64,000 bases of DNA from Justusliebigvirus alia. The notes below the pieces were generated by a model. The model saw nothing but the letters and a program-made list of their open reading frames with translations, made no database searches and was not told the DNA's origin. The position numbers and the translations under genes are program-made. Positions 4,978 to 64,000 of the stretch are shown piece by piece; the stretch's first letter is position 1; the number at the start of each line of letters is the position of its first letter. The stretch is taken from the sequence record OZ035799.1; one strand, written 5' to 3'.

Positions 4978-4978
4978 T

Positions 4979-5455
4979 TCAACCTCTCTTAATTTGTTTA
5001 ACAAGCATAGGAACAAAATCTCGTTTTAAAATTTGTTCAATAATATGATCAGGTAGCTGTTGGAAATTATAATTAAAAGCTACTGTCTCACCTTTAGGTG
5101 TTTCTACCCGCACATATAACATGTTACGAAGTTTATCCACTTGTGCTGTATATTCTAAACCATGTAATTGATGCATTGCAAACATCAAATCATCAGTTTC
5201 AGTTTGGAATCTATCATTTGCTTGCATTAAGGACAAGGTAAAAGGTAGATTTTCCCTAAGAGCCACCTTCTTAGGAACTAGTGAAGGAAAATACTCACCA
5301 ATAACTTCCTGTGTAAGCTGGATACACTCTTTTTCAATTTGGTTTTGTTCCTTAAGTTCACAAACACTTTTTTGTAAAGTGTTAACCTCTTTTTGCAAAG
5401 CTGCTAGTTGAGCACTTAACTTTCTTTTTTGATTACGACCAAAACGTTTAGACAT
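4979..5455 (-). CDS. hypothetical protein
   Basis: 158 aa ORF, basic N-terminus with predicted coiled-coil character; no recognisable motif. Confidence 0.5.
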   Translation of the reverse strand: MSKRFGRNQKRKLSAQLAALQKEVNTLQKSVCELKEQNQIEKECIQLTQEVIGEYFPSLVPKKVALRENLPFTLSLMQANDRFQTETDDLMFAMHQLHGLEYTAQVDKLRNMLYVRVETPKGETVAFNYNFQQLPDHIIEQILKRDFVPMLVKQIKRG

Positions 5456-14034: not shown

Positions 14035-15207
14035 ATGACAGCACCAAAATCATGGGAACAATATAAAGAAGAATTAACACCCCTTGCTAAAAATCGCAAT
14101 ATTCAAATCCTGGGTTATGTTGGTGAATGGAAAGGGAACAAGACTAAACTTAAGCTATCTTGCCCTAAACATGGAGAGTGGAACACCACGAACATTAATG
14201 ATTTTAAGAAGGGACGTGGTTGTCCTATCTGTTCTGGTAAGAAGCCGTTAACATGGGAAACAGAATTGCCGATCTTGGAAGAGATAGCACAGAAGAGGGG
14301 GTATCAGGTGTTAGGGTACGTGGGAGAATGGAAAGGGAATAAAACAAAACTTGATTTGTTGTGTCATTGTGGTAATAAATGGGATACTACAAGTATTAAC
14401 AATTTTAAACGTGGTAGCGGTTGTCCACAATGTAAGAGGGAGAGACAAACAATGTCCGACGATCAACATATTGCAGATTTCTTTTCTACAGGGGAATTTA
14501 AGGAAGGCACTATCTTCACCAATACAGGGAAACGTAACAAGCGTGATGCAGTATGGATGGTTGAGTGTCCTGTTTGCTCCCATGATGAATATGTTCAAGC
14601 AGGTGTTTGTGATGGTAAATTTTACTCTGCAGGACATAACCTTAAACAAGGGTATATTCCGTGTCGTTGTGGGAACTATCAGTATACAGAAGACCAGATC
14701 ACCTATAGGGTAAAAAAGGAAGTAGAAGGGAAAGGGTATGTCTGGGTAGATTGGATTACCAAACCCTCTTCTATAGGTAAGTTTAAATATCTTTGTCTTG
14801 TGCATGGTGATCAGATAGGGAGTGCTCGTAATTTATTAAGCCTCGGTCAAGGTTGTCCACAGTGTGCTGGTCATAATCAACAGCAATTATATATTAATAT
14901 TGTTAAAGATAATGATATTATAGTTGCTCTTAAGTTTGGTATATCTAAAGATAGCGATAGACGATTAAACGGTCAAAATAGCCGTAATCTGTTTTTTATG
15001 GAGCGTATTTGTTTATATGATTTTAGCACAGTGAAACAATGTAAGGCTGCTGAAAGAGCTATAAAGAAAAAATTAAAAACTGGTATTTTAACGGAAAGAG
15101 AGTTGAAAGACGGTTATACAGAAACAGTAAGTGTTTCTGATTTGGAAAATCTTCAAAAAATTATTACACAATATGGTGGCAAATTAGTATACAGTAAGGA
15201 GATGTAA
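14035..15207 (+). CDS. putative homing-endonuclease-like protein (tandem zinc-ribbon repeats + T5orf172/GIY-YIG-like C-terminal domain)
   Basis: Repeated LGYVGEWKGNKTKL...C..HG.W.....F..G.GCP.C modules (four Cys pairs); C-terminal ALKFGISKDSDRRLNGQN resembles the T5orf172 family motif. Confidence 0.45.
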   Translation: MTAPKSWEQYKEELTPLAKNRNIQILGYVGEWKGNKTKLKLSCPKHGEWNTTNINDFKKGRGCPICSGKKPLTWETELPILEEIAQKRGYQVLGYVGEWKGNKTKLDLLCHCGNKWDTTSINNFKRGSGCPQCKRERQTMSDDQHIADFFSTGEFKEGTIFTNTGKRNKRDAVWMVECPVCSHDEYVQAGVCDGKFYSAGHNLKQGYIPCRCGNYQYTEDQITYRVKKEVEGKGYVWVDWITKPSSIGKFKYLCLVHGDQIGSARNLLSLGQGCPQCAGHNQQQLYINIVKDNDIIVALKFGISKDSDRRLNGQNSRNLFFMERICLYDFSTVKQCKAAERAIKKKLKTGILTERELKDGYTETVSVSDLENLQKIITQYGGKLVYSKEM

Positions 15208-15759
15208 ATGCGGATTACTGATAAGTATGTGTTCTTCTTTTCAGCAAAAGATGAATTTAGCAACTGGTATCTATCATCTTTTATTGAACCTTTAGCACCC
15301 AAGTATAATAATTCTATTACAAGTTCTGTTGAATTTACTTGTGTGGAACAATATATGATGTGGAGAAAAGCATGTTTGTTTTATGATTACAGTATTGCAT
15401 CTTCTATTTTAACCGGAGATCTAAGATATACAGGAGAAAAAGAACAAGCATATTATAAACGACTAGGCAGATTAGTTAAAGATTATGATGAAGATACCTG
15501 GGCTTCTTTACGGGAGAAGATTGTCAAGCGTGGTTTGTATCTTAAATACACACAAAATGAAGATCTCAAAAATAAACTTATCGCTTACGCAGATAAGGAG
15601 TTCGTAGAGGCAAGCCCTTATGATTCTATTTATGGTATCAAAATGGGGATGTGGGATCGTGACGTGGAAAATAAGGACTGTTGGAAAGGACAAAATCTTT
15701 TAGGAAAATGGCATACAGACCTTGCTGTTTATCTAAAAGCACAATCTGATATTTCCTGA
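15208..15759 (+). CDS. NADAR (YbiA-like) domain protein
   Basis: FFFSAKDEFSNWY ... VEQYMMWRKACLF ... SPYDSIYGIKMG pattern matches NADAR family. Confidence 0.6.
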   Translation: MRITDKYVFFFSAKDEFSNWYLSSFIEPLAPKYNNSITSSVEFTCVEQYMMWRKACLFYDYSIASSILTGDLRYTGEKEQAYYKRLGRLVKDYDEDTWASLREKIVKRGLYLKYTQNEDLKNKLIAYADKEFVEASPYDSIYGIKMGMWDRDVENKDCWKGQNLLGKWHTDLAVYLKAQSDIS

Positions 15760-40985: not shown

Positions 40986-41798
40986 TTACTTAGTCAAATG
41001 ATCTTCTATCATTTTTATGAAAGCAGGATTGCTAAAAGCATCTGCTGCCTTTTCTCTATAAACAAAGACTCCTCTATCTTCGTAAAGAAGAGTTTCTTCG
41101 TAATTAATTCCTGGGTTAACAACAATCATTTTTGTACCCATACTAAGTGCAGGGAATAATTCCCAATTAAAATTGATAACTTGGTTTGAACATCCTACTA
41201 CAACAACCAAATCTTGCATGGTCAAAGTATCAAACAAGTGAGCCATATCTGCATACAAAGGTGCAGCCTCACCAAAAAATACAACATTAGGCTTCACCCA
41301 ATTATAATCATCTATGTTTATACTATTGTAACCAATGTCTACCAGTGTTTTGTAATCTCCAGGATGCATACGGTAAACTACTTCAGGAAGATACCCGTGC
41401 ACGTGAATAACAGAATCCCTGTCCACACCTGCTCGCTCTAGTAGATCATCAACGTTTGTTGTCAAGTTTACTACTTGGTTAGGATATTCCTTAAACCACT
41501 TTGCTATTTGAATATGTGCAGCATTAGGTTGTACATCTTTAAGCTCAACACGTCTTTTGTTATAAAATTCGTGTGTTTTGGCATACAAGTCCATACCGTT
41601 CTCGTCTACACCACCGACCACTGGAAGATCTGGTGATGTTCTCACACGATAACCTGCTTGGAAAGCTCCAATATCGCAGATCTCTTCTAAATCCCATTCT
41701 TCCCATAAGGCACGACCACTATCTGTGTCTGTTCGGAATGTTCGAATCCCACTGTCTGCACTTAAACCAGCTCCACTAACAAAAATTACTCTTCGCAT
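40986..41798 (-). CDS. Sir2 (sirtuin)-family protein, apparently lacking the zinc-ribbon module
   Basis: VIFVSGAGLSADSGIRTFR (GAGxS..SGIxxFR), catalytic His in VIHVHGYL, VVVVGCSNQV (GTS-like); no CxxC pairs seen. Confidence 0.7.
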   Translation of the reverse strand: MRRVIFVSGAGLSADSGIRTFRTDTDSGRALWEEWDLEEICDIGAFQAGYRVRTSPDLPVVGGVDENGMDLYAKTHEFYNKRRVELKDVQPNAAHIQIAKWFKEYPNQVVNLTTNVDDLLERAGVDRDSVIHVHGYLPEVVYRMHPGDYKTLVDIGYNSINIDDYNWVKPNVVFFGEAAPLYADMAHLFDTLTMQDLVVVVGCSNQVINFNWELFPALSMGTKMIVVNPGINYEETLLYEDRGVFVYREKAADAFSNPAFIKMIEDHLTK

Positions 41799-43127: not shown

Positions 43128-44117
43128 CTATTCCTCCATACATTTAAGAATATGTGCAATGACAGGTATAGTCCAACCGTTACCTAACATCTTATATGCT
43201 TGTGTATTACTACTCACTTTAAAGTAGTCATCTGGCACACCTTGCAAACGGCAACACTCTTTAACGGTTAACTTTCTATAATGTACGCCTTCACTCAATT
43301 TTTCAAAAGCATCTAAATATCTTCCAGGTGGAATGTAAGCTAATAGTACGTCTTTCGGCACAGTCGTGAGGCAACGAGTTTTTTCACTGTCCTGAACTTC
43401 CAAACAATGTACCAAACGATCAGTTTTAGATGTACTACGTTTGCCATTTTCATTAATTCTACGCCCATATATTGCTGCTGGATAAAAAACCAGTTGTCTG
43501 CGACTCTTTTCAAAATACTGTTCTATATTACCACCTTTGGCATAATTTGCATCTATGCAATAAGCCTTATCTCTGTCTACAATACTATCATCTTCAATGA
43601 TATCTTGCAACACTTCATTGGTAATATCCCAGGGTTTTATTTCCCAGTTGCACCAGTATAAACGTTGTCTATTCTGTGCCGTGAAATCTGCGGAGTTAAT
43701 GAATACGGGATCAACACCTAAGTAACTTGTGATCACGTTTTCCCACTCCACTTTCATCTTAACGTTTTCGAGCATGAACTTAACATTAGGGTTAAACTTT
43801 TTAATATGTTCAAGAATCTCAACATATTCGAAGAATAGCTTAGATCGCGGATCTTGAAAGTTCAAACCCTTACCAGAAGAAGAGAAGCCTTGACACGGAC
43901 TACCACCTAACAAAAGATCAATTTCTCCCCACGGAATATCCCATTCTCTCCATTTTGTAACATCGCCTAACTGAATAATATCTGGAAAATTTGCTTGGCT
44001 TTCAGCTATGGCGAATTTGTCTAATTCTGAAGCATAATATGTATCTACTTCAATACCTGCACTTTTTAGCGCAAGCATTCCTCCTGACATACCATCAAAA
44101 AGACTTAAAACTTTCAT
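43128..44117 (-). CDS. DNA (cytosine-5)-methyltransferase
   Basis: Motif I LSLFDGMSGG, motif IV GGSPCQGFS, motif VI FMLENV, motif VIII QNRQRLYW, C-terminal GNGWTIPV. Confidence 0.85.
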   Translation of the reverse strand: MKVLSLFDGMSGGMLALKSAGIEVDTYYASELDKFAIAESQANFPDIIQLGDVTKWREWDIPWGEIDLLLGGSPCQGFSSSGKGLNFQDPRSKLFFEYVEILEHIKKFNPNVKFMLENVKMKVEWENVITSYLGVDPVFINSADFTAQNRQRLYWCNWEIKPWDITNEVLQDIIEDDSIVDRDKAYCIDANYAKGGNIEQYFEKSRRQLVFYPAAIYGRRINENGKRSTSKTDRLVHCLEVQDSEKTRCLTTVPKDVLLAYIPPGRYLDAFEKLSEGVHYRKLTVKECCRLQGVPDDYFKVSSNTQAYKMLGNGWTIPVIAHILKCMEE

Positions 44118-52266: not shown

Positions 52267-52767
52267 TTAGTTATAAGCGTCTAATGTTCCAGTTTTAAGT
52301 ACCTGAATTACACGCTCTGCGCGATTAGGCGTTTGGCGATACCATTTACTTTTACGTAAATTTATAGAGGCTTGAGTATAATATGAATTACTCACTAAAG
52401 TCAAGCTATTTTTGAAAGATTCTGCACCTTTCAACCCCATTTGAAATACCATATTAATAATAGCCATTTTACGATTAGGACTTACTTTATCGTAAATAGG
52501 AGATAGTATGGTACTTGAATGGATTTGTTGTATCGCTTTCTTTACATCACTCTCAAAGATTTTTCTAACTTCCGCTTCAGTAATAACTCCATTGGTTTTT
52601 CTACCTACTAAGTTATCAAGAATGCGTATAGCTTCTGCTTTATCTTTGCGTTTTGTCAGAAGGTGTCCAATACCAACTGTCCAATACCCTTCGGTATCAG
52701 GATATACAGTTAGCTTTAGTCCTTCATCAAAACGTAACATATCAAACACATCAACTACTTTAGCCAT
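52267..52767 (-). CDS. T4-type lysozyme (endolysin, glycoside hydrolase family 24-like)
   Basis: FDMLRFDEGLKLTVYPDTEGYWTVGIGHLLT ... INMVFQMG ... SKWYRQTPNRAERVI closely parallels T4 lysozyme including catalytic Glu/Asp/Thr region. Confidence 0.85.
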   Translation of the reverse strand: MAKVVDVFDMLRFDEGLKLTVYPDTEGYWTVGIGHLLTKRKDKAEAIRILDNLVGRKTNGVITEAEVRKIFESDVKKAIQQIHSSTILSPIYDKVSPNRKMAIINMVFQMGLKGAESFKNSLTLVSNSYYTQASINLRKSKWYRQTPNRAERVIQVLKTGTLDAYN

Positions 52768-52927: not shown

Positions 52928-53194
52928 TTACTCCGCAATCTGAGCCATGAATTCACGTAGTTCAGAAAAACCTCCTACGTGGGTTAGCTGTTCACCATCT
53001 TCCACAAAAATCTGAGGAAATGTGCGTGGTAGAACACCTGTTTTCTCTAAAACCAGATTCTGAATCTGATCTAAAGAATAGTCTTCATCTAAGGTAAGAT
53101 ATTTAAAATCCTGTTCACGCTGTTCTAGTAGAATCTTAGCGTTAGTGCAGAAAGGACAATTTGGTTTACCGTAGATAATAAAATTCATTTTCAC
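52928..53194 (-). CDS. glutaredoxin (NrdH/Grx-like redoxin)
   Basis: IIYGKPNCPFCTNAK active-site CPFC motif. Confidence 0.75.
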   Translation of the reverse strand: MKMNFIIYGKPNCPFCTNAKILLEQREQDFKYLTLDEDYSLDQIQNLVLEKTGVLPRTFPQIFVEDGEQLTHVGGFSELREFMAQIAE

Positions 53195-54021
53195 TCCTTG
53201 TTTAAAAGTATAGTTAAAGTTCTTACAATACCGCTATCAACACTTCGCGGATTTAAAGTAGGATCTGTTTTTAAATAAGATGTTGCTGGTCTGACTGCTT
53301 TGGAATTATAGGTTGAAGCAGATACAGGATTAACTGTAACAGATAAATCTATAACAAGAAATATCTTTCGTGCAAAATCATACCAAGAAATATAATCTGC
53401 ACCTGCATAGTGTACAATTTTACTATTTACACCATCTTTTACAAGTTTAAAAATTGTTTCTGCAAGATCAGGTGCATAAGTAGGACATGACAAATGATCA
53501 CATACTACATTAAATTCTTTTTGACCACCGTTGTAGCGTTCCAACATAGTTTTCAAAAAGTTATGTCCAAATTCACTATAAACAGAAGCTGTTCTGATAA
53601 TAAGTGCTGTAGGACAAACTGTTTGTACTAAAGTTTCACCTAATTGTTTACTGTAACCGTAGGTGTTCAAGGGGTTTGTTTTACTATCTTCTGTGCCAGC
53701 AACACGCCCATCAAAAACATAGTCTGTTGAAATATGTACAAACTGTATCAGTAAATCATTACATGCTTTGGCAATGTTTGTTGCACCGTATGCATTAACA
53801 TTTATACAGGTGTTAACATCTTCTTCAGCTTTATCTACTGCCGTGTAAGCCGCACAATTCACAACAACATCAGGCACATGCTGTACAAGACTATTCATAA
53901 CATCTTTAAAGTTGGTAATGTCTACATCACTTGCTTCAATCAAAATAACATCTTCGGGCGCAACTTTTGCCAAAGACTGTCCTAATTGACCTTTTGAACC
54001 AAAGATTAAAAATTTTGTCAA
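53191..54021 (-). CDS. rmlD: dTDP-4-dehydrorhamnose reductase
   Basis: FGSKGQLGQ N-terminal NAD(P)-binding motif, STDYVFDG, YGYSK. Confidence 0.8.
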   Translation of the reverse strand: MTKFLIFGSKGQLGQSLAKVAPEDVILIEASDVDITNFKDVMNSLVQHVPDVVVNCAAYTAVDKAEEDVNTCINVNAYGATNIAKACNDLLIQFVHISTDYVFDGRVAGTEDSKTNPLNTYGYSKQLGETLVQTVCPTALIIRTASVYSEFGHNFLKTMLERYNGGQKEFNVVCDHLSCPTYAPDLAETIFKLVKDGVNSKIVHYAGADYISWYDFARKIFLVIDLSVTVNPVSASTYNSKAVRPATSYLKTDPTLNPRSVDSGIVRTLTILLNKE

Positions 54022-54572
54022 AATATGATCTCCTTTAGTGTTTTGGCTTGCTGATCTTTTTGTGACAAGATAGGTTTAAAATTAATATCATTAAAGATTA
54101 AATCAAAACCCCAATCAATATTGATATCTGGATCATTCCACGCAAGACTACATTCTGAAGTCGGATCGTAATATTCTGTACATTTATATTCAAAATCAGC
54201 AATGTCACTAATCACAACAAAGCCATGAGCGAAACCAGGAGGAATCCAAAATTGTGTTTTATTCTTTTCAGATAAGAGAACACCTACCCATTCTCCAAAT
54301 GTTGGACTACCAACCCTAATATCTACAGCAACATCATAAACTTCACCACGAACACAACGTACTAACTTCCCTTGTGGGTTTTTCTTTTGAAAATGAAGCC
54401 CACGTAGAACTCCTCGAATAGAACGTGAATGGTTATCTTGGACAAAGTTTTGTTTACCTATGTATTGATCATATAAAGCCTGATTAAAACTTTCTAAGAA
54501 AAAACCACGTTCATCTCCGTAAACGTCAGGTTGAATGATCAACAAATCTTCGATTTTTGTTGCTTGAATCAT
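54018..54572 (-). CDS. rmlC: dTDP-4-dehydrorhamnose 3,5-epimerase
   Basis: GDERGFFLESFN ... RGLHFQ ... KLVRCVRGEVYDVAVDIR cupin-type RmlC motifs. Confidence 0.85.
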   Translation of the reverse strand: MIQATKIEDLLIIQPDVYGDERGFFLESFNQALYDQYIGKQNFVQDNHSRSIRGVLRGLHFQKKNPQGKLVRCVRGEVYDVAVDIRVGSPTFGEWVGVLLSEKNKTQFWIPPGFAHGFVVISDIADFEYKCTEYYDPTSECSLAWNDPDINIDWGFDLIFNDINFKPILSQKDQQAKTLKEIIF

Positions 54573-54584
54573 TTAATCTCCCCT

Positions 54585-55454
54585 TTATTTTAATTTAAGT
54601 AAATACTTGCCGTAGTCTGTTTTACTTAAAACCTCTCCAGAACTTTTTACGGAATCTAAAGTAATCCATTCATTTTTAAAAGCAATCTCTTCCAGGCATG
54701 CAACCTTCATACCTTGTTGCTTTTCTATTGCATGAACAAATTGAGATGCTTCCATAAGACTTTCATGTGTCCCTGTATCCAGCCAAGTGAAACCTCTTCC
54801 TAGTTTACAGACACGTAAAGCCTTTTCTTTCCAGTACATCTCATTTATATCTGTAATCTCTAACTCCCCTCTAGCAGAAGGTTTAACGCTTTTAGCTTTC
54901 TGTATAACAGAATTATCGTAAAAGTACAAGCCTGTGATTGCATAGTTGCTTTTTGGTGCTTTTGGTTTTTCTTCAATACTCACCACTGTACCTTCAGAAT
55001 CAAACTCAACAACACCAAATCTTTCAGGATCATTTACGTGATACCCAAAAATATTAGCTCCACCATTCTTCTCAATATGTTCTTTAGCAGAATCTAAAAT
55101 GCTACCAAAACTCTGACCAAAGAATAAATTATCACCTAGCACAAGTGCTACAGAATCTTCACCAATAAAGTTCTCACCAATAATAAATGCTTCTGCTAAA
55201 CCTTTTGGGCTGTTCTGTACTGCATACTGTAGGGAAATACCAAAAGAAGAACCATCACCTAGGAGATTTACAAAATTAATTTGATCTTCTGGTGTTGTAA
55301 TTATTAGTATTTCCCTAATTCCAGAAAGCATTAGGACAGAGAGTGGATAATAAATCATAGGCTTATCGTAAATTGGTAATAGTTGTTTACTAACCCCTTT
55401 AGTAACTGGGTAAAGTCTTGTTCCACTACCACCTGCTAAGATAATACCTTTCAT
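54585..55454 (-). CDS. rmlA: glucose-1-phosphate thymidylyltransferase
   Basis: [18 protein letters not shown] ... [16 protein letters not shown]; typical 289 aa length. Confidence 0.85.
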
Positions 55455-55462
55455 ACTCCTCC

Positions 55463-56452
55463 TTAAACTTTATTTTCCCACCACTCTTTGTTATCTACAT
55501 ACCAATCAATGGTTGAATAAAGTTTTTCTTCAAATGTGCCTTTAGCTTTCCACCCTAATTCCTTTTCAATCTTATAAGGATTCACTTCATATCTTAAATC
55601 ATGCCCAGGTCTATCTGTAACCATTTCAATGAGGCTACAAGCATCTGTTTCAGATGGATACACCGCATCCATATAATCACAAATCATATAGATTACATCA
55701 ATATTAGTTCTAGGGTTTCTGCTCCCAATATTATATGTTTCTCCAGATTTGCCTTTAGTTACTACTAGGTGTAATGCTTCTGCGTGATCGTCAACGTATA
55801 ACCAGTCTCTTACTTGAAGACCATTGCCATAAACAGGGATTGGTTTATGCATCAAGATATTTGTTATCGTTTTAGGTATTAGTTTTTCTGGATGATGATA
55901 CGCTCCAAAATTATTTGAACAATTTGTTATAACTGTCGGAATACCATAAGTACGATGCCACGCTCTTACCAAATGATCGCTTGCAGCTTTAGATGCAGCA
56001 TATGGACTACTTGGTTTATAAGGATTCTGTTCTGTAAACGGATAATCCCCTTCTTCCATATCACCATACACTTCATCTGTTGAAATATGATGAAACATTT
56101 TAAGATTTGATTTATCTCCCATTAAACGAACAGCTTCTAGAAGATTAAATGTTCCAACAATATTTGAATTTATAAAAACACTCGGTGATGCTATTGAATT
56201 ATCTACGTGACTTTCTGCTGCAAGATGCATTATATAATCTGGGTTAACATCTGCCACAATCTTAGCAGTTAACTGAGCATTTGTCAAGTCAACACGACAA
56301 AACTTTACATTAGGTGTTTCTGATAAATTTCTAGGGTCTGAAGCGTAACCCCATTTATCTATAACGTAAATATCATTCTTAGTATTTTTAGCCAGGAAAC
56401 GAACTACCGCACTTCCAATAAAACCTAAACCACCTGTTACTAAGTATTTCAT
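55463..56452 (-). CDS. rmlB: dTDP-glucose 4,6-dehydratase
   Basis: [10 protein letters not shown] Rossmann motif, [11 protein letters not shown] (YxxxK), HISTDEVYG. Confidence 0.85.
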
Positions 56453-56646
56453 TTAGTCTCCTTCCAATTATTCCCTTCAGTAAAAATAATACCTTCATAA
56501 AACAACCATCTGGAACCTTTTTCAACAGGAACAGGAAGCTCTTCTTCAGTAAAGTTATAAACCTCTCTAGCATCTTCTAAAAGTGACGCAAATGTTTTTG
56601 GACTTACTGTTACGCGAGGAGCATTGATCAGTTGATCTAGCATCAT
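56449..56646 (-). CDS. hypothetical protein
   Basis: Start set to MMLDQLINAP with AGGAGGATAG SD. Confidence 0.4.
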   Translation of the reverse strand: MMLDQLINAPRVTVSPKTFASLLEDAREVYNFTEEELPVPVEKGSRWLFYEGIIFTEGNNWKETK

Positions 56647-56659
56647 TCTACTATCCTCC

Positions 56660-56986
56660 TTACCAAACGTGTTGAGAAATAATAGTTTCCGTTTCAATGT
56701 TATATTTTTCAAGAAGTTGTGCGTAGGCTTCTTTTGCATTCTTATTTAGTTGCTCAAGATCTACAGCTACACTTCCTTCGCCACCTTCTAAATAAATCCC
56801 ATATATGCAATAAGATGCATCAGCGTCATAGAAAGGTGAGATACGGCTTAAATCAAGACCTTCTTGTAAGAACCAATTAAAATCTCCATCAAATTCTTCT
56901 TCAATTCTAGGATCTTCTCCTACAGCCTCTTCCCATTTATTAAAAGGTGCACCCTGTAACATACGCCATTCAGTGGCAACTCCCAT
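56660..56986 (-). CDS. hypothetical protein
   Basis: 108 aa acidic ORF with AGGAGGAAGATA SD. Confidence 0.5.
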   Translation of the reverse strand: MGVATEWRMLQGAPFNKWEEAVGEDPRIEEEFDGDFNWFLQEGLDLSRISPFYDADASYCIYGIYLEGGEGSVAVDLEQLNKNAKEAYAQLLEKYNIETETIISQHVW

Positions 56987-57122
56987 TATCTTCCTCCTCT
57001 TCTTTTTCTTCCGTGTGAACGAAGCCTAAACCGTTACAATTCCAACACGGAATAAATTGTTCCATACTAACAATAAAATTCCCAGTACCACCGCAGATAG
57101 GACAAATACTTACATCGTCCAT
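56970..57122 (-). CDS. hypothetical small zinc-ribbon protein
   Basis: 50 aa (MDDVSICPICGGTGNF...CWNCNGLGF...) with two CxxC pairs; GAGGAG SD; resembles the zinc-ribbon tail of ORF 36953; not in track. Confidence 0.35.
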   Translation of the reverse strand: MDDVSICPICGGTGNFIVSMEQFIPCWNCNGLGFVHTEEKEEEEDNGSCH

Positions 57123-57124
57123 TA

Positions 57125-57331
57125 TTAAAGCTCCTCAATCTTTTCTAACATCTGTTTTAACTCATTCTCTGTTAATAGAATTTCTGTGATACCATCATAA
57201 GTTTCTACCATCAGAGTAAAACATTTCTCTCCATCTGAACATATAAAAGCACCACCTTCATCTTCTGTTAAGTCAGAATTAATATCTACATCAACAAAAT
57301 CAATCATCTTTTTCTCCTTTGATAATTTCAA
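57125..57331 (-). CDS. hypothetical protein
   Basis: 68 aa acidic ORF. Confidence 0.45.
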   Translation of the reverse strand: MKLSKEKKMIDFVDVDINSDLTEDEGGAFICSDGEKCFTLMVETYDGITEILLTENELKQMLEKIEEL

Positions 57332-57518
57332 ACTTGGCTACACCATTAACTATAATATGACCGCAAGACATAACTCCTAGCCAATGATCACCATTCTTTT
57401 TTAAACGTTTGCCGTAAACATCACAGAAACCATTCTGTAATTCGGAAGCCTCATAAGAGGCTCCCTTTTCGAAAACGTCTTTGAAGTCAGAAATTAATCC
57501 AACACAAAGTAGTTTCAT
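57300..57518 (-). CDS. hypothetical protein
   Basis: 72 aa ORF. Confidence 0.45.
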   Translation of the reverse strand: MKLLCVGLISDFKDVFEKGASYEASELQNGFCDVYGKRLKKNGDHWLGVMSCGHIIVNGVAKFEIIKGEKDD

Positions 57519-58603
57519 TAGAAGTCTAACTCCTCGTCATCACTTACATCTTTATTTGCTGAATTCAGTTTGTAAGCTGTAATTTGGATCTCCTGTGCTG
57601 CTGCTTGAATTTGATCTGGATTTAACCAAACATCCATCCAAGGCAGTGGACTTTTCTTCGGTGCACGGAATTTGTGTTTCATTTTCAGTCTGCGATAGAT
57701 AGGCGCAGCATTGAAGTAAACCCAAAGTTTGAACAACTCTGCGTTACCACCAACGATAATCCTTCCTTCACTAAACAGATAGTCACACCAATCTTCCTCT
57801 TGTCCAACTACCGTGTCAAGAATTTCTGTCAGAACGTCGATATTATCTTCGTATACTTTTCTCCAGACAGGATCTTTCAGCAGTGCATCAATAATAGCAT
57901 AATCCATTTTAACGTGCAATAGTTCATCCAACATAATTTTTTGAATGAGTTTAGCTGCACCTACAAACAGTTGCTGCTCTGCTAAGGCAAATGTTGCAGC
58001 AAAAGATGATATGAATTGAATGCCTTCCAGACCGATAAGTGCAATCATTCCTTTCAGAATCAGTAGACGAAGATTATCATCCTTCTCAATCAGACCTAGA
58101 GCATATTTATGTCCTGCCTCTGCCAGATCACTCATTATCTCTTCAACTATACCCATCCTCTGGAAGATTCTTTCATTCTCCATGATCTGATCGATAACTT
58201 CATTTGGATTAGGGATACACTGACGAATAATTTCAGAATATGTCAAAGCGTGTAAAACTTCCATCTCTGATTGCTTCATCATCATTGCACATGCTTCGTT
58301 GTTGCTTAAAAATGGTGCAAACAAAGTGATGATTGATTTAGCAAGTGAATCATTTTCCCATTGGAAAGATAGGTTTTTGATCATAACATCATAGTTGCTT
58401 TTAGAACAAGCTACGAAATCTTTTCGTGTCTGATCTAAGTTTACTTCGTTTTCATCCCAATCTTGCTGTTTTTGTAGTTTGTACAGACGATGCATTTCTG
58501 GGTATGTTACATTAATAGAATCAAAAATACCTAACTGTTCTCCCAAAAATACAGGGTAGAAACCTTCTTTGTAAGTGTCGTTGTATAAGTTAATTGCTGC
58601 CAT
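57518..58603 (-). CDS. nrdB: ribonucleoside-diphosphate reductase beta subunit (class Ia)
   Basis: 361 aa; ferritin-like di-iron fold residues (E...H pairs) and NrdB-typical C-terminal acidic tail DDEELDF. Confidence 0.9.
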   Translation of the reverse strand: MAAINLYNDTYKEGFYPVFLGEQLGIFDSINVTYPEMHRLYKLQKQQDWDENEVNLDQTRKDFVACSKSNYDVMIKNLSFQWENDSLAKSIITLFAPFLSNNEACAMMMKQSEMEVLHALTYSEIIRQCIPNPNEVIDQIMENERIFQRMGIVEEIMSDLAEAGHKYALGLIEKDDNLRLLILKGMIALIGLEGIQFISSFAATFALAEQQLFVGAAKLIQKIMLDELLHVKMDYAIIDALLKDPVWRKVYEDNIDVLTEILDTVVGQEEDWCDYLFSEGRIIVGGNAELFKLWVYFNAAPIYRRLKMKHKFRAPKKSPLPWMDVWLNPDQIQAAAQEIQITAYKLNSANKDVSDDEELDF

Positions 58604-58965: not shown

Positions 58966-61227
58966 TTACATCTTACAAGCCTCACAACCGGATTCTTCAT
59001 CCTCTTGAGCGAGTGAGGTTGCCGATTTTGTTCTGCTATTTAGATAGTACAAAGATTTACCACCAAGTTTTGCAAACTGAAGAATATATTGCATTTCTGA
59101 TTTAATGGATAAACGACCACCTTCCATCTTAGAATAGTCAATCCACTTATCACATGATGCACCTTGATCTAAGAATTTAGTCAACAGTCCATATGCTTCA
59201 GCCATATCTTTATCTGGTGTATCCCAAGCCGATTGGTAAATATCTTTTAGTTTATCGTAGTCTGGCACAATAAACAGAACATTACCCTTTTGGCTTTGTT
59301 TATAAACTATAGTATCACGTACAGGATACACAGAGTTAGTCGTATTACTTACAAGACTACTGGACTCATTTGGAGCAATAGCTGCTAATACGCTATTTCG
59401 GATACCACCTTGTGCAATGATATCTTGTCGTAAACCTTCCCAATCCATTTTAAGTTTAAAATTGCCAATATCGTCTACAGCTTTAGCGTAGGTGTCAATA
59501 GGCAACCATCCTTCAGGCCATTTGGTTTTATGCATCCATTCTGCATTACCTTTCTCTTTTGCCAAACGAAGAGAAGCTCTTGCTAACCAATAATAATGTC
59601 TTTCTGCTAATTCGTGAATTAGTTTTTTGCCGTAAGGATCTGAATAAGTAACAAAATTACTTGCCAGATAATGTGCAAGGTTTGTAATACCTACACCGAT
59701 AGACCTACGTGCTTTAGCAGTGATTTCGTTATGTTTAAACGGATACTGCATTGTTTCAATAACATTATCAATAGTTAGAACGGTATAATATGCAACATCT
59801 TCATATTCTTCTGGTGTAACACGACCAGCTACAATAGAAGACAGGAAGCATAATGCCAATTCTTGATCTTCTGTATTCTCACCCGTGAAAAGATCAGTCA
59901 TATTGTGAAATGCTTTCGTAGGTAAGAAAATTTCTTGGCACAAGTTTGACTGATAAATAACATCCTTAAACGGAGTATGTTTATTAACATTGTCAGCAAA
60001 GAACATATAAATACGTCCTGTCTCTGCTCTTTGTGTAATAATTTCTGCCAGAAGATCTCGTGCTTTTACAAACTTCTTCTTAATTCGTTTGCGACTAACT
60101 TTTTCATATACTTCTTCAAACTCTTCCTCGCTTTTATAAAGCGCCTCATAGAGTTCTGGTGCTTCGTCATAACTGACTAGCATCCAATCTTTACCTTTTG
60201 CTGCACGACGCAGGAAAGCATTGTTTACTACGATAGAGTAATCAAGTTTATCTACTCGTTTTTCACTAACCGTAGTTGGGTTTTTCAAACGTACCAGATC
60301 TTCAAAGTCAGGCTCTAATATTGTGAACGTTACTGTTGCACTTCCACCACGACTTGCTTGTTTTGATGCTCCAACACTTGTTTCCATCCACTTCAGATAT
60401 GGTAAAAGACCACCGTGAACGATACGGTTGTTCTTAACACCTTGTCCTGTAGCACGGGTTTGGAGGTTAACACCAATACCTGCATTATTCAAGGTATATT
60501 CATGAGCAAGATAGTTAGCAATTGCTAAAGATTCTGCTGTATCATCTGCTCTAAACAGACAACAAGAAGCACTACCTTTAATCTTAGTACGCAAAGTTGT
60601 TAAATAAGGCGATGGTAAATTAATCTTAAGATCACTTACGTAGGTATATAGACGTTTAATGTCTTCTACTCTGCGATCTTTTGGTTGAATTTCCATTACC
60701 TTCATTGCTACACCAATGAATAAAAACTGTGGTGATTCAAAAACAACATCATTGATCGCATCTTTCACAAGATACTTATCAACCATCTGGCGCAGTACGG
60801 AATAACCATAAGTTAGGTTTTTATCGTGATTGACAATTTTACCAATCTCAATAATTTCTTCTTCTGTATAATCCATTTTTCCCCAATAGCCTTTACTTAC
60901 AGACATATTGTAGAAATCCAGGAGGGAGGGGATATTGTGATATCCCCCATGAGCCTGTTTATAAATCATACCAAGAAGTAACCGACCTGCCATATCACTA
61001 TATGCCTGATCTTTCTTATCAATACATGCTGCTATCATAGCTTTATGTAAATCACGAGTAGGCACACCGTCGTAACAACGTTTAACAGCTTCAAGTTCAA
61101 TTTCAGACCAATTTAATTTACCAGCAGCAAACTCTGACCATTTACGAAGTTTTTCTGGATTAAATTCTTCTTTCTTGCCGTTTGTTTTTGTTACATAACG
61201 GATAGATTTGCTTAGATACTGAGTCAC
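58966..61227 (-). CDS. nrdA: ribonucleoside-diphosphate reductase alpha subunit (class Ia)
   Basis: 753 aa; N-terminal ATP-cone-like region, active-site region NLCQEIFLP, C-terminal redox Cys pair (ESGCEACKM). Confidence 0.9.
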   Translation of the reverse strand: MTQYLSKSIRYVTKTNGKKEEFNPEKLRKWSEFAAGKLNWSEIELEAVKRCYDGVPTRDLHKAMIAACIDKKDQAYSDMAGRLLLGMIYKQAHGGYHNIPSLLDFYNMSVSKGYWGKMDYTEEEIIEIGKIVNHDKNLTYGYSVLRQMVDKYLVKDAINDVVFESPQFLFIGVAMKVMEIQPKDRRVEDIKRLYTYVSDLKINLPSPYLTTLRTKIKGSASCCLFRADDTAESLAIANYLAHEYTLNNAGIGVNLQTRATGQGVKNNRIVHGGLLPYLKWMETSVGASKQASRGGSATVTFTILEPDFEDLVRLKNPTTVSEKRVDKLDYSIVVNNAFLRRAAKGKDWMLVSYDEAPELYEALYKSEEEFEEVYEKVSRKRIKKKFVKARDLLAEIITQRAETGRIYMFFADNVNKHTPFKDVIYQSNLCQEIFLPTKAFHNMTDLFTGENTEDQELALCFLSSIVAGRVTPEEYEDVAYYTVLTIDNVIETMQYPFKHNEITAKARRSIGVGITNLAHYLASNFVTYSDPYGKKLIHELAERHYYWLARASLRLAKEKGNAEWMHKTKWPEGWLPIDTYAKAVDDIGNFKLKMDWEGLRQDIIAQGGIRNSVLAAIAPNESSSLVSNTTNSVYPVRDTIVYKQSQKGNVLFIVPDYDKLKDIYQSAWDTPDKDMAEAYGLLTKFLDQGASCDKWIDYSKMEGGRLSIKSEMQYILQFAKLGGKSLYYLNSRTKSATSLAQEDEESGCEACKM

Positions 61228-62007: not shown

Positions 62008-62979
62008 TCACCATTTTGTATGGTTAGTCAAAAGTTGACGATGTTGAATCCAACCGCAGAAGTTTCCACTCCACAAACGATGTTTACGATCCATATGTGT
62101 AATACCTTCTTCCCAAGAAGTAGGGAACGGAGGAATATTAATACCACCTTTCTGTTGTTTTAATCCTGACAAATCCATTTCTTTCATTGGCGTTGCCTGG
62201 TGTTCAAACGGAGATGCATGTACCTTTTGTCCAGACAGCAAACGAGAATAGATATCCAATGCTTTATCTTTAGTATCATTCAACTTACGATAACTTACCT
62301 GAGCGCAACAAGAAGCTGAAATAGCTTTTGCTTCCTCTTCTGTCAACATTTTCTCGTTGGAGAAGGTTTCACCCAAGAAATAACGGATCATACCAGTTTC
62401 TGGATCTCGATCACGATTAACGTAAGGTGTATGCCATTCCCCTGGGAAAAGAAGATATGGTTCAGAAGATTCATACAGTTTTTTAATTTCTTTAGCAAGA
62501 GCCTCAATAGTAGGATCTGCATCAGCATCTACACGCAACCACAAGAAGTTTTCTAGCTCTGTAGTGGTTACTACAGTCTTCATACGCTGGAATGGTTCTA
62601 GTAGGCGGTTTGCAACCTGTTTATGATAACCAGCAAGGGCAAACTCTTCTGCAAAACGTGCAGCACTTAGTGCAGCCAAGTCCCACCATTCTTTTGCAGT
62701 GTAACCTGCATCAATCAGGGCATCGTGATCTGTGCCTTTATCTTGCATACCTGGTTGGTTAGCACCAAAACGATAAGGACGTGCTGGAGATTGCCGTACC
62801 ATTTCAATTAGAGTTTTAACAGGGATAGCTCGACTTGATGCGGCATTACGAGAAAACAAACGATGCGTCATCAATTCAGAGTGAATGATTCGAGGATATT
62901 CAAGTTCAAAGGTAACAATATCCTTACCTTCAGATGTTTGAGAGTGTGCAATAATTTTTGCTGAAATAGAGTTTGTCAT
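62008..62979 (-). CDS. thyX: ThyX-like (flavin-dependent) thymidylate synthase
   Basis: ELMTHRLFSRNAASSRAIP matches the ThyX RHR...S....S.R signature; longer (323 aa) than typical ThyX. Confidence 0.55.
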   Translation of the reverse strand: MTNSISAKIIAHSQTSEGKDIVTFELEYPRIIHSELMTHRLFSRNAASSRAIPVKTLIEMVRQSPARPYRFGANQPGMQDKGTDHDALIDAGYTAKEWWDLAALSAARFAEEFALAGYHKQVANRLLEPFQRMKTVVTTTELENFLWLRVDADADPTIEALAKEIKKLYESSEPYLLFPGEWHTPYVNRDRDPETGMIRYFLGETFSNEKMLTEEEAKAISASCCAQVSYRKLNDTKDKALDIYSRLLSGQKVHASPFEHQATPMKEMDLSGLKQQKGGINIPPFPTSWEEGITHMDRKHRLWSGNFCGWIQHRQLLTNHTKW

Positions 62980-62988
62980 TATTTCTCC

Positions 62989-63579
62989 TTAAGGTAGTAA
63001 AATACTTTCAATTTCTTCCCACTGATTATCTAAACCAGTGATAATTACATTAGGAAGTTTCTTTAACTCTTCCAAGTATGGATCTTCGTAAATAGTGTTG
63101 AAATATATTTTCAACGTTTCATCTGGAAATAGGACAAGATTTTCAGCCCTATCGTCAATAGTTACGTCGCAAGGTAATAAGTATTTTTCTTTTGTTGCGA
63201 AAAAGCCATTACCAGATGTTCTACTAAAGTCCACTTTATCTAAAGATCGTGTTACGTGTCTATATTTAGAACTAAGGTGTCCACCCTTAGTGTGGCTTGC
63301 TATAGATATATTAGCTCCATTTGCAATTATACGATGAACAACATCTGTACTATTAGGTACTACTCCCATAGTATCATATAGATGTTGGTTATCCCAAAAA
63401 GAGTAAGGATCTACACCAAATTGCTTTTTAAAATCAGGAAAATATTTCGTAATATCATAATGCACAGTCTTTTGTGTCTTATCAAACTTGATATTAGATC
63501 TACTTACCGCATTTAACCAACTCAACCATTCTATATCGGCAGGAGCTATTACTAAATCCCAATCACATACTAGACGCAT
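62989..63579 (-). CDS. putative 5'(3')-deoxyribonucleotidase (HAD superfamily)
   Basis: Start at MRLVCDWDLVIA gives an N-terminal DxD-type HAD motif I; later DVTIDDR motif. Confidence 0.5.
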   Translation of the reverse strand: MRLVCDWDLVIAPADIEWLSWLNAVSRSNIKFDKTQKTVHYDITKYFPDFKKQFGVDPYSFWDNQHLYDTMGVVPNSTDVVHRIIANGANISIASHTKGGHLSSKYRHVTRSLDKVDFSRTSGNGFFATKEKYLLPCDVTIDDRAENLVLFPDETLKIYFNTIYEDPYLEELKKLPNVIITGLDNQWEEIESILLP

Positions 63580-64000
63580 TTTTTCTCCTGTTATAACATT
63601 TTCTACACATTGTTTCGTAAATGTCTTCTCCTCCAATAACAATCTGTTCTTTAGAGTCGATAAGTCTAGCATTGAAAATAGCTTTTCTTCCACATTTACA
63701 AATGCTTTTCAATTCTGTAATTGAATCTGCTATGGCTAATAACCGTTCAGAACCTTCGAACAATTCTGTAGCAAAATCTGTTTTAAGCCCATAACAGAAT
63801 ACAGGAATATCGTAATTATCTACCACATCTCCAAGAATGTCAACCATATCTTTAGTTAGGAATTGTGATTCGTCCACAAATACTGCATCTACTGGATTTT
63901 CTTTAAGTTGTGTATAAATTTCCAGCATATCTTCTTTTGTTTTAACTGGTTTTGCTTCCTCTTTAATACCTATCCTAGAAGCAATAGCACAACCAGATCT
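63563..64000 (-). CDS. tdk: thymidine kinase (partial; N-terminus beyond window end)
   Basis: VFVDESQFL (TK motif), C-terminal zinc-ribbon Cys pairs CKCGRKA ... CRKCY. Confidence 0.7.
   Translation of the reverse strand, partial: RSGCAIASRIGIKEEAKPVKTKEDMLEIYTQLKENPVDAVFVDESQFLTKDMVDILGDVVDNYDIPVFCYGLKTDFATELFEGSERLLAIADSITELKSICKCGRKAIFNARLIDSKEQIVIGGEDIYETMCRKCYNRRKNASSM

Follow-up and report, generated by a model that had tools for sequence, protein, structure and literature searches.

Retention of a complete dTDP-L-rhamnose gene set in the lytic phage Justusliebigvirus alia, and a distant glycosyltransferase cassette that may use its product

Why should a lytic phage subfamily retain a complete pathway to an activated 6-deoxyhexose? 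The question is raised by four adjacent genes, rmlB, rmlA, rmlC and rmlD, in a stretch of 64,000 nucleotides from Justusliebigvirus alia (sequence record OZ035799.1), the whole of which is referred to here as the window. The window is 100% identical to J. alia OZ035770.1, a phi92-like phage, with window position equal to the position in that record minus 64000. The rml block itself is already published and has been annotated since phAPEC8; its region is at least 95% identical in each of the 55 phage records that match, and the four genes are already annotated in most of these. In describing alia, Olsen 2020 (PMC7552041) called the location of these genes in the DNA-metabolism region 'peculiar' and speculated on rhamnosylation of hydroxymethylated nucleotides. 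Experiments by Maffei 2021 (PMC8594841) found phi92-like phages 'exceptionally susceptible' to restriction-modification (RM) systems, of types I-III, despite their putative dTDP glycosylation machinery. In the literature searched, no paper gives a function, virion glycans or a DNA modification for this phage group. What is new here is a partner glycosyltransferase (GT) cassette outside the window, the distribution of that cassette among phages, and a testable hypothesis of what the sugar is for.

The four genes occupy positions 53191-56452 of the window, as minus-strand open reading frames (ORFs) whose products are given with their lengths in amino acids (aa):

55463..56452, minus strand: rmlB, 329 aa, dTDP-glucose 4,6-dehydratase, TIGR01181 match
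54585..55454, minus strand: rmlA, 289 aa, glucose-1-phosphate thymidylyltransferase, TIGR01207 match
54018..54572, minus strand: rmlC, 184 aa, dTDP-4-dehydrorhamnose 3,5-epimerase, TIGR01221 match
53191..54021, minus strand: rmlD, 276 aa with a TTG start, dTDP-4-dehydrorhamnose reductase, TIGR01214 match

The match of these four ORFs to RmlB, RmlA, RmlC and RmlD is far beyond chance. Against the NCBIfam equivalog TIGR01181, RmlB scores 441.7 bits (cut-off 365.1); RmlA scores 473.3 bits against TIGR01207 (cut-off 360.65), with residues 2-288 on profile positions 1-284 of 286; and RmlC scores 260.4 bits against TIGR01221 (cut-off 155.75) and 242.5 bits against PF00908. The smallest margin among the four is that of RmlD, with 253.9 bits against TIGR01214 (cut-off 224.05), the family also being PF04321. 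Pfam agrees with the NCBIfam calls in every case. Residues 1-327 of RmlB align with Salmonella RmlB (1g1a, E = 1.2e-116) and retain the GGxGFIGS, STDEVYG and YxxSK (YAASKAAS) motifs, with both Rossmann and catalytic residues present. Residues 2-288 of RmlA align with Salmonella RmlA (1iim, E = 5e-125), to which the N-terminal GGxGTRLxPxT nucleotide-binding loop is identical, and RmlC aligns end to end with the Salmonella enzyme 1dzr (E = 6e-64), matching it in the catalytic-His motif RGLHFQ and the Tyr strand F-x-YK-x-T-x-YY. RmlD aligns with the crystallised 3sc6, 1vl0 and 1kbz (E = 3.5e-44, for 3sc6, to 3e-35); comparison with 3sc6 and 1vl0 shows that it keeps STDYVFDG and YGxSK (YGYSK), and with them the T...YxxxK triad of the short-chain dehydrogenase/reductase (SDR) enzymes. 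An earlier note on this DNA, made from its letters, had named the four ORFs as a complete rmlB-rmlA-rmlC-rmlD pathway. The equivalog scores, full-length alignments and motifs bear out the identities, and the completeness is upheld by the finding that all four genes are intact and under purifying selection.

The selection is apparent from comparison with the close relative phage Nernie, from which the four genes differ at 24 synonymous and 6 non-synonymous sites; dN/dS is informative for this close pair alone, synonymous sites being saturated between genera, as with phAPEC8. The Rml proteins of phAPEC8 are intact at 54-71% amino-acid identity and the gene order there is identical: nrdA-x-nrdB-small ORFs-rmlB-A-C-D-grx-x-lysozyme-phoH. 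The GC content of the rml block is 34.8%, compared with 37.1% for the window. Among 185,579 species genomes the closest cellular RmlA is ∼69% identical, and the cellular matches are spread across many phyla; recent capture of the rml genes from a host was rejected on both counts. Low identity to cellular homologues, phage-like GC content, selection and conserved synteny together lead us to regard these as old, selected resident genes. All four steps of dTDP-L-rhamnose synthesis are encoded, contiguously and under purifying selection, and a functional pathway is predicted.

A tblastn search with RmlC returned 168 phage records, ∼131 of them from Stephanstirmvirinae, with identities of ∼99% in Justusliebigvirus, 73-77% in Klebsiella and Citrobacter relatives, ∼68% in phiWec phages and 62-63% in Phapecoctavirus; the other matches are scattered, among them Synechococcus phage S-B05, Sphingomonas phage PAU and an Acinetobacter jumbo phage. 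RmlA finds the same 54 Justusliebigvirus records, whereas its organism tally holds no Klebsiella phages compared with 8 for RmlC. The difference is explicit in Klebsiella phage KP13-26 (L017 4483-5891), in which the conserved position holds rmlC and rmlD but neither rmlB nor rmlA. Since the Klebsiella members keep the last two steps though the host can supply the first two, we take L-rhamnose, rather than an effect on the dTTP pool, to be the selected product. As a separate observation, several records labelled as Campylobacter phage (MG065639, MG065650, MG065656, MG065689 and others) share 98-99% identity with these coliphages over the genes used as queries, Serratia-labelled phage records match at 99-100%, and Pseudomonas- and Acinetobacter-labelled ones at 75-77%. 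These host labels look doubtful, or else reflect propagation on contaminating hosts.

Compared with the RmlABCD enzymes of Enterobacterales, Pseudomonas and other bacteria, the phage proteins belong to the same four families, all above the equivalog cut-offs and with motifs intact. The setting differs, the phage genes standing in the nucleotide-metabolism block of a lytic myovirus rather than at a locus for O-antigen or capsule. The block also lacks the adjacent transferases, flippase and polymerase of bacterial rml loci, is phage-like in GC content and has no close cellular donor. Its order is B-A-C-D, unlike that of E. coli, which is B-D-A-C. In phAPEC8, phi92 and other Stephanstirmvirinae, apart from the Klebsiella members, the same rml genes occur in the same synteny as in alia.

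A pathway to an activated sugar calls attention to the enzymes that might consume it. A Pfam scan that covered the window ORFs of at least 150 aa produced no GT match, in agreement with the earlier note, which had recognised none in the window and proposed a search of the rest of the genome. That search was positive, yielding a cassette 15.6-17.8 kb before the window start and ∼69 kb from the rml genes:

OZ035770 46196-48386: GT cassette of three genes, for a 187-aa DxD protein, a 228-aa GT-A and a 327-aa GT4-type GT-B

Downstream of it are an 89-aa ORF, a primase/helicase and a DNA polymerase. The alia annotation leaves ∼80% of genes hypothetical, and in the PHROG-annotated relative Nernie four adjacent 'glycosyltransferase' genes beside the primase/helicase and DNA polymerase are the equivalents of alia_44 to alia_47. 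The GT genes match PHROG families 14179, 2456 and 7162 at E = 1e-80 to 1e-149; in Pfam they give weak, sub-threshold GT-A and GT1 signals, and an NCBIfam search with the three proteins assigned no family. An AlphaFold2 (AF2) model of a GT-A proxy (predicted local distance difference test, pLDDT, 89.8) has the GT-A fold with an invariant DDD, and that of the GT-B (pLDDT 94.7) has the canonical GT4-type GT-B fold. The residues R16, D64-D66 and Y138-G139-x-E141-D142 are invariant in the GT-A family, which is uniformly acidic (isoelectric point, pI, 4.7-5.8). All three GTs are soluble, without transmembrane segments (maximum KD19 ∼1.1).

Structural neighbours of the GT-A model are generic, comprising STIV A197, WrtF, K4CP, the rhamnosyltransferase RmlT, phage TarP, beta4Gal-T and ppGalNAc-T, together with GTs of uncultured phages and giant viruses in BFVD. 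Neighbours found for the cassette also include GTs that act on small molecules or proteins: BshA, MshA, GtfA, SdgB and LmbT. The fold comparisons do not discriminate among acceptors.

The 327-aa GT-B (L007 10197-11180; OZ035770 46196-47179) is itself a hybrid, its N-terminal, acceptor-side half corresponding to alia_45 and its C-terminal, donor-side half to alia_44. These two genes, both present in MN850632 alia, are paralogs with 41% identity. Where that phage has two GT-B paralogs the present isolate has the single hybrid, which either arose naturally through a domain-swap deletion or reflects a collapse in the assembly.

The cassette co-occurs with rml across Stephanstirmvirinae: by tblastn the GT-A and the GT-B are each found in ∼136 phage records, of the same genera as rml. 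Further afield, a collection of 5.8 billion proteins holds 254 homologs of the GT-B and 18 of the GT-A; 12 cassette neighbourhoods were examined, that of alia included. Prophages of three bacteria hold the whole cassette in the same order (34-50% identity, E = 1e-37 to 1e-102). The 187-aa GT is confirmed by BLASTP in L009-L011 alone, that is, in three of the eight small phages and prophages. In three of the twelve neighbourhoods (L010, L012 and L100) an SDR protein of 340-354 aa, resembling an NDP-hexose 4,6-dehydratase, is embedded in the cassette; those of L010 and L012 have TIGR01181 as best family (180-191 bits, under the equivalog cut-off) and carry the STDEVYG and YSASK signature, while the assignment in L100 comes from precomputed Pfam alone. 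The embedded gene gives the cassette a link to 6-deoxyhexose chemistry that does not depend on alia itself. Because of this, the co-occurrence throughout the subfamily and the retention of rmlCD in the Klebsiella members, the GT cassette is probably the consumer of dTDP-rhamnose.

The location of the cassette in these other phages bears on the acceptor. In the Serratia and Enterobacter prophages it lies between the lysis genes and HNH-terminase, and in the Pseudomonas alliivorans prophage directly after the major capsid gene, ahead of the head-tail and tail genes. The GT-A/GT-B pair is found between large terminase and portal in L014, L101 and L102, immediately ahead of the terminase, portal, protease and capsid genes in L015, and as the first genes past the Q antiterminator in L013. 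The GT-A/GT-B core thus stands in the late or morphogenesis region in all eight small phages and prophages, and between or beside terminase, portal or capsid in seven of them. In the large myoviruses (alia, L012, L099 and L100) all four cassettes lie upstream of the primase/helicase. TelA, TerF and TerD genes also flank the cassette in L012 and L099; alia has its own tellurite-resistance-like cluster (vWA-TerF, TelA, TerC), with a ComF-like phosphoribosyltransferase and a macro-domain protein, at L007 15061-23084 (OZ035770 ∼51-59 kb).

We propose the following sequence of events. RmlA, RmlB, RmlC and RmlD would convert glucose-1-phosphate and dTTP to dTDP-L-rhamnose. With this supply of donor the three soluble GTs would be freed from dependence on host serotype and on host gene expression after takeover, and would rhamnosylate the phage's own virion proteins, giving a rhamnose-containing glycan coat. 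Placement in the head module of unrelated phages, retention in strictly lytic phages, a relation to the Pacc40/Che8 locus and the failure to find a DNA precursor pathway point to virion proteins as the acceptor, an assignment that we rank first but hold at somewhat less than an even chance. The full proposal, that phi92- and phAPEC8-like virions carry a rhamnose glycan by means of the three-GT cassette and their own dTDP-rhamnose, and that the same cassette does so in many temperate phages of Proteobacteria, is more tentative again. A self-supplied donor is plausible for these phages, whose host range is the broadest of the BASEL set.

There are precedents for such a system. The Che8 gp110 GT is reported to be essential for capsid glycosylation (Freeman 2023), and mycobacteriophage virion glycosylation (Che8 gp108-110, Corndog, Myrna) resembles the present case in using phage-encoded soluble GTs active in lytic growth. 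The alia GT-A matches residues 81-252 of Pacc40 gp98 (E = 6e-14), a gene that lies two genes from an ortholog (84.5% identical) of Che8 gp110. A direct link to Che8 was sought and rejected: BLASTP of all alia GTs against gp108-110 gave nothing significant, and 88 mycobacteriophage tblastn matches to the GT-A narrowed to the Pacc40 gp98 domain. Unlike Che8, alia is a myovirus with a Gram-negative host and its own sugar-nucleotide pathway, and for alia virion glycosylation is a hypothesis. The chloroviruses and mimiviruses offer a second parallel, PBCV-1 likewise encoding enzymes for a 6-deoxyhexose nucleotide sugar together with soluble cytoplasmic GTs. In PBCV-1 the soluble GTs, including the two L-rhamnosyltransferase domains of A064R, are expressed early and glycosylate the capsid protein (PMC9614988), and therefore the position of the alia cassette beside replication genes need be no obstacle. 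The hosts are eukaryotic, there is no detectable sequence homology between the GTs, and the A064R donor is UDP-beta-L-rhamnose (PMC9614988) as against dTDP-rhamnose made by RmlABCD in the phage.

Several points weigh against virion rhamnosylation. Nowhere in the literature searched are virion proteins of a Stephanstirmvirinae phage directly shown to be glycosylated, no individual GT of the cassette is established as a rhamnosyltransferase, and direct BLASTP finds no alia GT significantly similar to Che8 gp108-110. The alia cassette is far removed from the rml genes and adjoins the primase/helicase and DNA polymerase, a typical site for DNA-modifying enzymes. Moreover, the R...DDD...ED motif of the GT-A and the sub-threshold TAGT matches of 16 of the 18 family members resemble the DNA-base GT-As of the NEB study (bioRxiv 10.1101/2023.12.21.572611), in which terminase, too, is named as a neighbour of putative DNA GTs.

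Of the alternatives, the one that survives best, though we consider it unlikely, is remodelling of the host envelope, in which the GTs would add rhamnose units to intermediates of lipopolysaccharide (LPS) core, enterobacterial common antigen (ECA), O-antigen or capsule at the cytoplasmic face. Masking of receptors could then bring superinfection exclusion, or fewer progeny lost on cell debris. Such masking would make sense for phi92-like phages, which bind several surface glycans including LPS core (PMC8594841), and the neighbours of the GT-A do include the wall-teichoic-acid enzymes RmlT and phage TarP. The position of the cassette in temperate phages argues otherwise, since it lies in the late or head operon, where it would not be expressed in lysogens, instead of occupying an att-proximal conversion locus. 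Two further points lead the same way: strictly lytic phages keep the cassette as well, and late synthesis would probably leave little time for export to the outer membrane. Serotype conversion of the GtrABC type depends on a membrane flippase GtrA, on GtrB and on a type-specific membrane GT at a locus expressed in lysogeny. By contrast, transmembrane segments are absent from the alia GTs, the scan of non-structural ORFs yielded neither a GtrA/GtrB-type nor a flippase Pfam family, alia is a lytic phage, and the cassette of its temperate relatives belongs to a late operon.

Less likely still is a sparse or motif-specific glycosylation of DNA, for example rhamnose, or a glycan that includes it, on 5-hydroxymethylcytosine (5hmC) derived from the product of a phage C5-methylase. 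This descends from the original published speculation (Olsen 2020, PMC7552041), and alia shares several features with DNA glycosylation in T-even phages and in systems of the TET/5mYOX or ThyS type: a GT-A and GT-B beside replication genes (here primase/helicase and DNA polymerase), a DxD/ED pattern, sub-threshold TAGT matches and a C5-cytosine methylase (window 43128-44117). In the NEB study (bioRxiv 10.1101/2023.12.21.572611) DNA GT-As with R...DDD...EDY/F motifs act on 5hmC or 5-hydroxymethyluracil produced by clustered 5mYOX/TET or ThyS enzymes, and the alia GT-A combines an R...DDD...ED motif with its weak TAGT matches. There is also a weak match to the PHROG of the T-even beta-glucosyl-HMC-alpha-glucosyltransferase (E = 4e-5).

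The precursor chemistry is what fails to appear. A Pfam scan of all ORFs of at least 150 aa in the non-structural genome (∼105 kb) found ThyX (PF02511), which is the sole thymidylate synthase, a C5-cytosine methylase and an N6/N4 methylase; it found no TET/JBP dioxygenase, no ThyA-type hydroxymethylase of the PF00303 kind and no further GT. Precomputed Pfam assignments give no TET/JBP or ThyA-type gene in any of the 12 cassette neighbourhoods either, though such pathways reportedly usually cluster. The TAGT family (PF20691) scores 24.1 bits against alia_46, with a threshold of 27.5, and all matches within the GT-A family are below threshold and no stronger than those to GT2 and Glyco_transf_7C; membership of TAGT was accordingly rejected, a weak resemblance being retained. 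No T-even DNA GT is among the best 50 BFVD neighbours of the GT-A, the acidity of that family also speaks against a DNA substrate, and the donor would be a dTDP-sugar, which the text of bioRxiv 10.1101/2023.12.21.572611 does not mention. Whereas T-even-type glucosylation depends on a ThyA-family hydroxymethylase and would confer broad resistance to restriction, phi92-like phages are exceptionally sensitive to RM systems of types I-III (PMC8594841), a sensitivity that rules out a genome-wide protective DNA modification. The earlier note had proposed virion proteins, the host surface and DNA or nucleotides as uses of the sugar without choosing among them. Its caution still holds, although the third proposal is disfavoured in so far as it implies a sugar modification of the whole genome. 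The C5-cytosine DNA methyltransferase, on the minus strand, is itself clearly assigned (PF00145, E = 5e-42), and relatives annotate several more DNA methylases.

About as improbable is another acceptor for the dTDP-rhamnose, such as a small molecule, a host protein or a non-structural protein of the phage, with the effect, for example, of inactivating a signal or factor in defence. Genes of counter-defence type are plentiful in the genome (Sir2, NADAR, macro domain, NAMPT, phosphoribosyl pyrophosphate (PRPP) synthetase and several methylases), and BshA, MshA, GtfA, SdgB and LmbT are among the structural neighbours noted above; yet no specific candidate is known, and repeated placement among head-morphogenesis genes in unrelated small phages is not what would be predicted for an anti-defence gene. 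Weakest is a metabolic role without any phage transferase, whether in buffering the dTTP and dTDP-sugar pools or in supplying host rhamnose glycans during infection: the place of the rml block among nucleotide-metabolism genes (nrdAB-thyX-tk), its coupling to glutaredoxin and its distance from the GT cassette are consistent with it, but it is made very improbable by the Klebsiella members, whose rmlC and rmlD would leave the dTTP pool untouched, by the co-occurrence of rml and cassette across the whole subfamily, and by the dehydratase-like gene inside relatives' cassettes.

The genes around the rml block are as the earlier note described them, between glutaredoxin/lysozyme and an nrdBA-thyX-nucleotidase-tk cluster, and the ORF list, annotation and Pfam all agree on this setting:

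52267-52767: lysozyme, neighbour on the glutaredoxin side of the rml block
52928..53194, minus strand: glutaredoxin-like gene, overlapping rmlD by 4 nt in the same transcription unit; not claimed for the sugar pathway
57518-58603: nrdB, nucleotide-metabolism cluster
58966-61227: nrdA, nucleotide-metabolism cluster
62008-62979: thyX, nucleotide-metabolism cluster
62989-63693: NT5C-like nucleotidase, a weak match
at the window edge: tk

A Shine-Dalgarno site precedes each rml gene (AGGAG for rmlB, AAGGAGG for rmlA, and AGGAG before the TTG of rmlD, well spaced), and the intergenic gaps are 8 nt for rmlB-rmlA, 12 nt for rmlA-rmlC and -4 nt for both rmlC-rmlD and rmlD-glutaredoxin. With these sites and gaps the four rml genes form one translationally coupled unit. 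The glutaredoxin gene is annotated as glutaredoxin 1 in alia and phAPEC8, and its junction with rmlD is kept in phAPEC8 and in Klebsiella phage KP13-26. A scan of 51.4-59.2 kb gave promoter and terminator counts at shuffled expectation (27 versus 27.1 and 4 versus 3.9). These chance-level counts fit an rml block lying within a long leftward unit that extends from nrdA and nrdB by way of rml to grx, lysozyme and phoH, and the rml genes would be expressed as one coupled block inside this early/middle unit. Between nrdB and rmlB are five small minus-strand ORFs (∼48-108 aa) at 56449-57518, the most downstream of which overlaps the rmlB start by 4 nt; their number and position are conserved in phAPEC8.

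Other features of the genome were seen in passing. Genes related to NAD and ADP-ribose include those for a CapR-repeat protein, a NADAR-domain protein and Sir2 in the window (14035-15759, plus strand, and 40986-41798, minus strand), and a macro domain, NAMPT and PRPP synthetase outside it (L003 36833-39531); the set suggests an NAD-centred counter-defence. The UvrD-type helicase at window 2347-5016 (minus strand) has 889 aa compared with 578 aa in MN850632 alia. Because Hint and intein-splicing Pfam families match at residues ∼267-613, we take the helicase of this isolate to contain an intein. Finally nrdD, a single 599-aa gene in MN850632, is represented just before the window by two ORFs of 323 and 288 aa, ∼240 bp apart (L007 25789-26760 and 27002-27868; OZ035770 ∼61.8-63.9 kb), perhaps because of an intron, a homing element or a frameshift.

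Phages of this group are available in public collections (BASEL Bas60-62 and phi92). Should DNA or the host envelope prove to be the target, a new dTDP-sugar-dependent modification would be at hand. If virion rhamnosylation is correct, then, as far as the literature searched extends, no system for glycosylating virions would have been known before in phages that infect Gram-negative bacteria, and no earlier phage case would have supplied its own sugar donor. The phi92- and phAPEC8-like coliphages are widely used as broad-host-range therapy candidates, and glycosylation of their virions would bear on virion stability and host range and also, as has been reported for mycobacteriophages, on how therapeutic phages are recognised by antibodies and cleared. 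Virion glycosylation would then extend beyond the actinobacteriophages.

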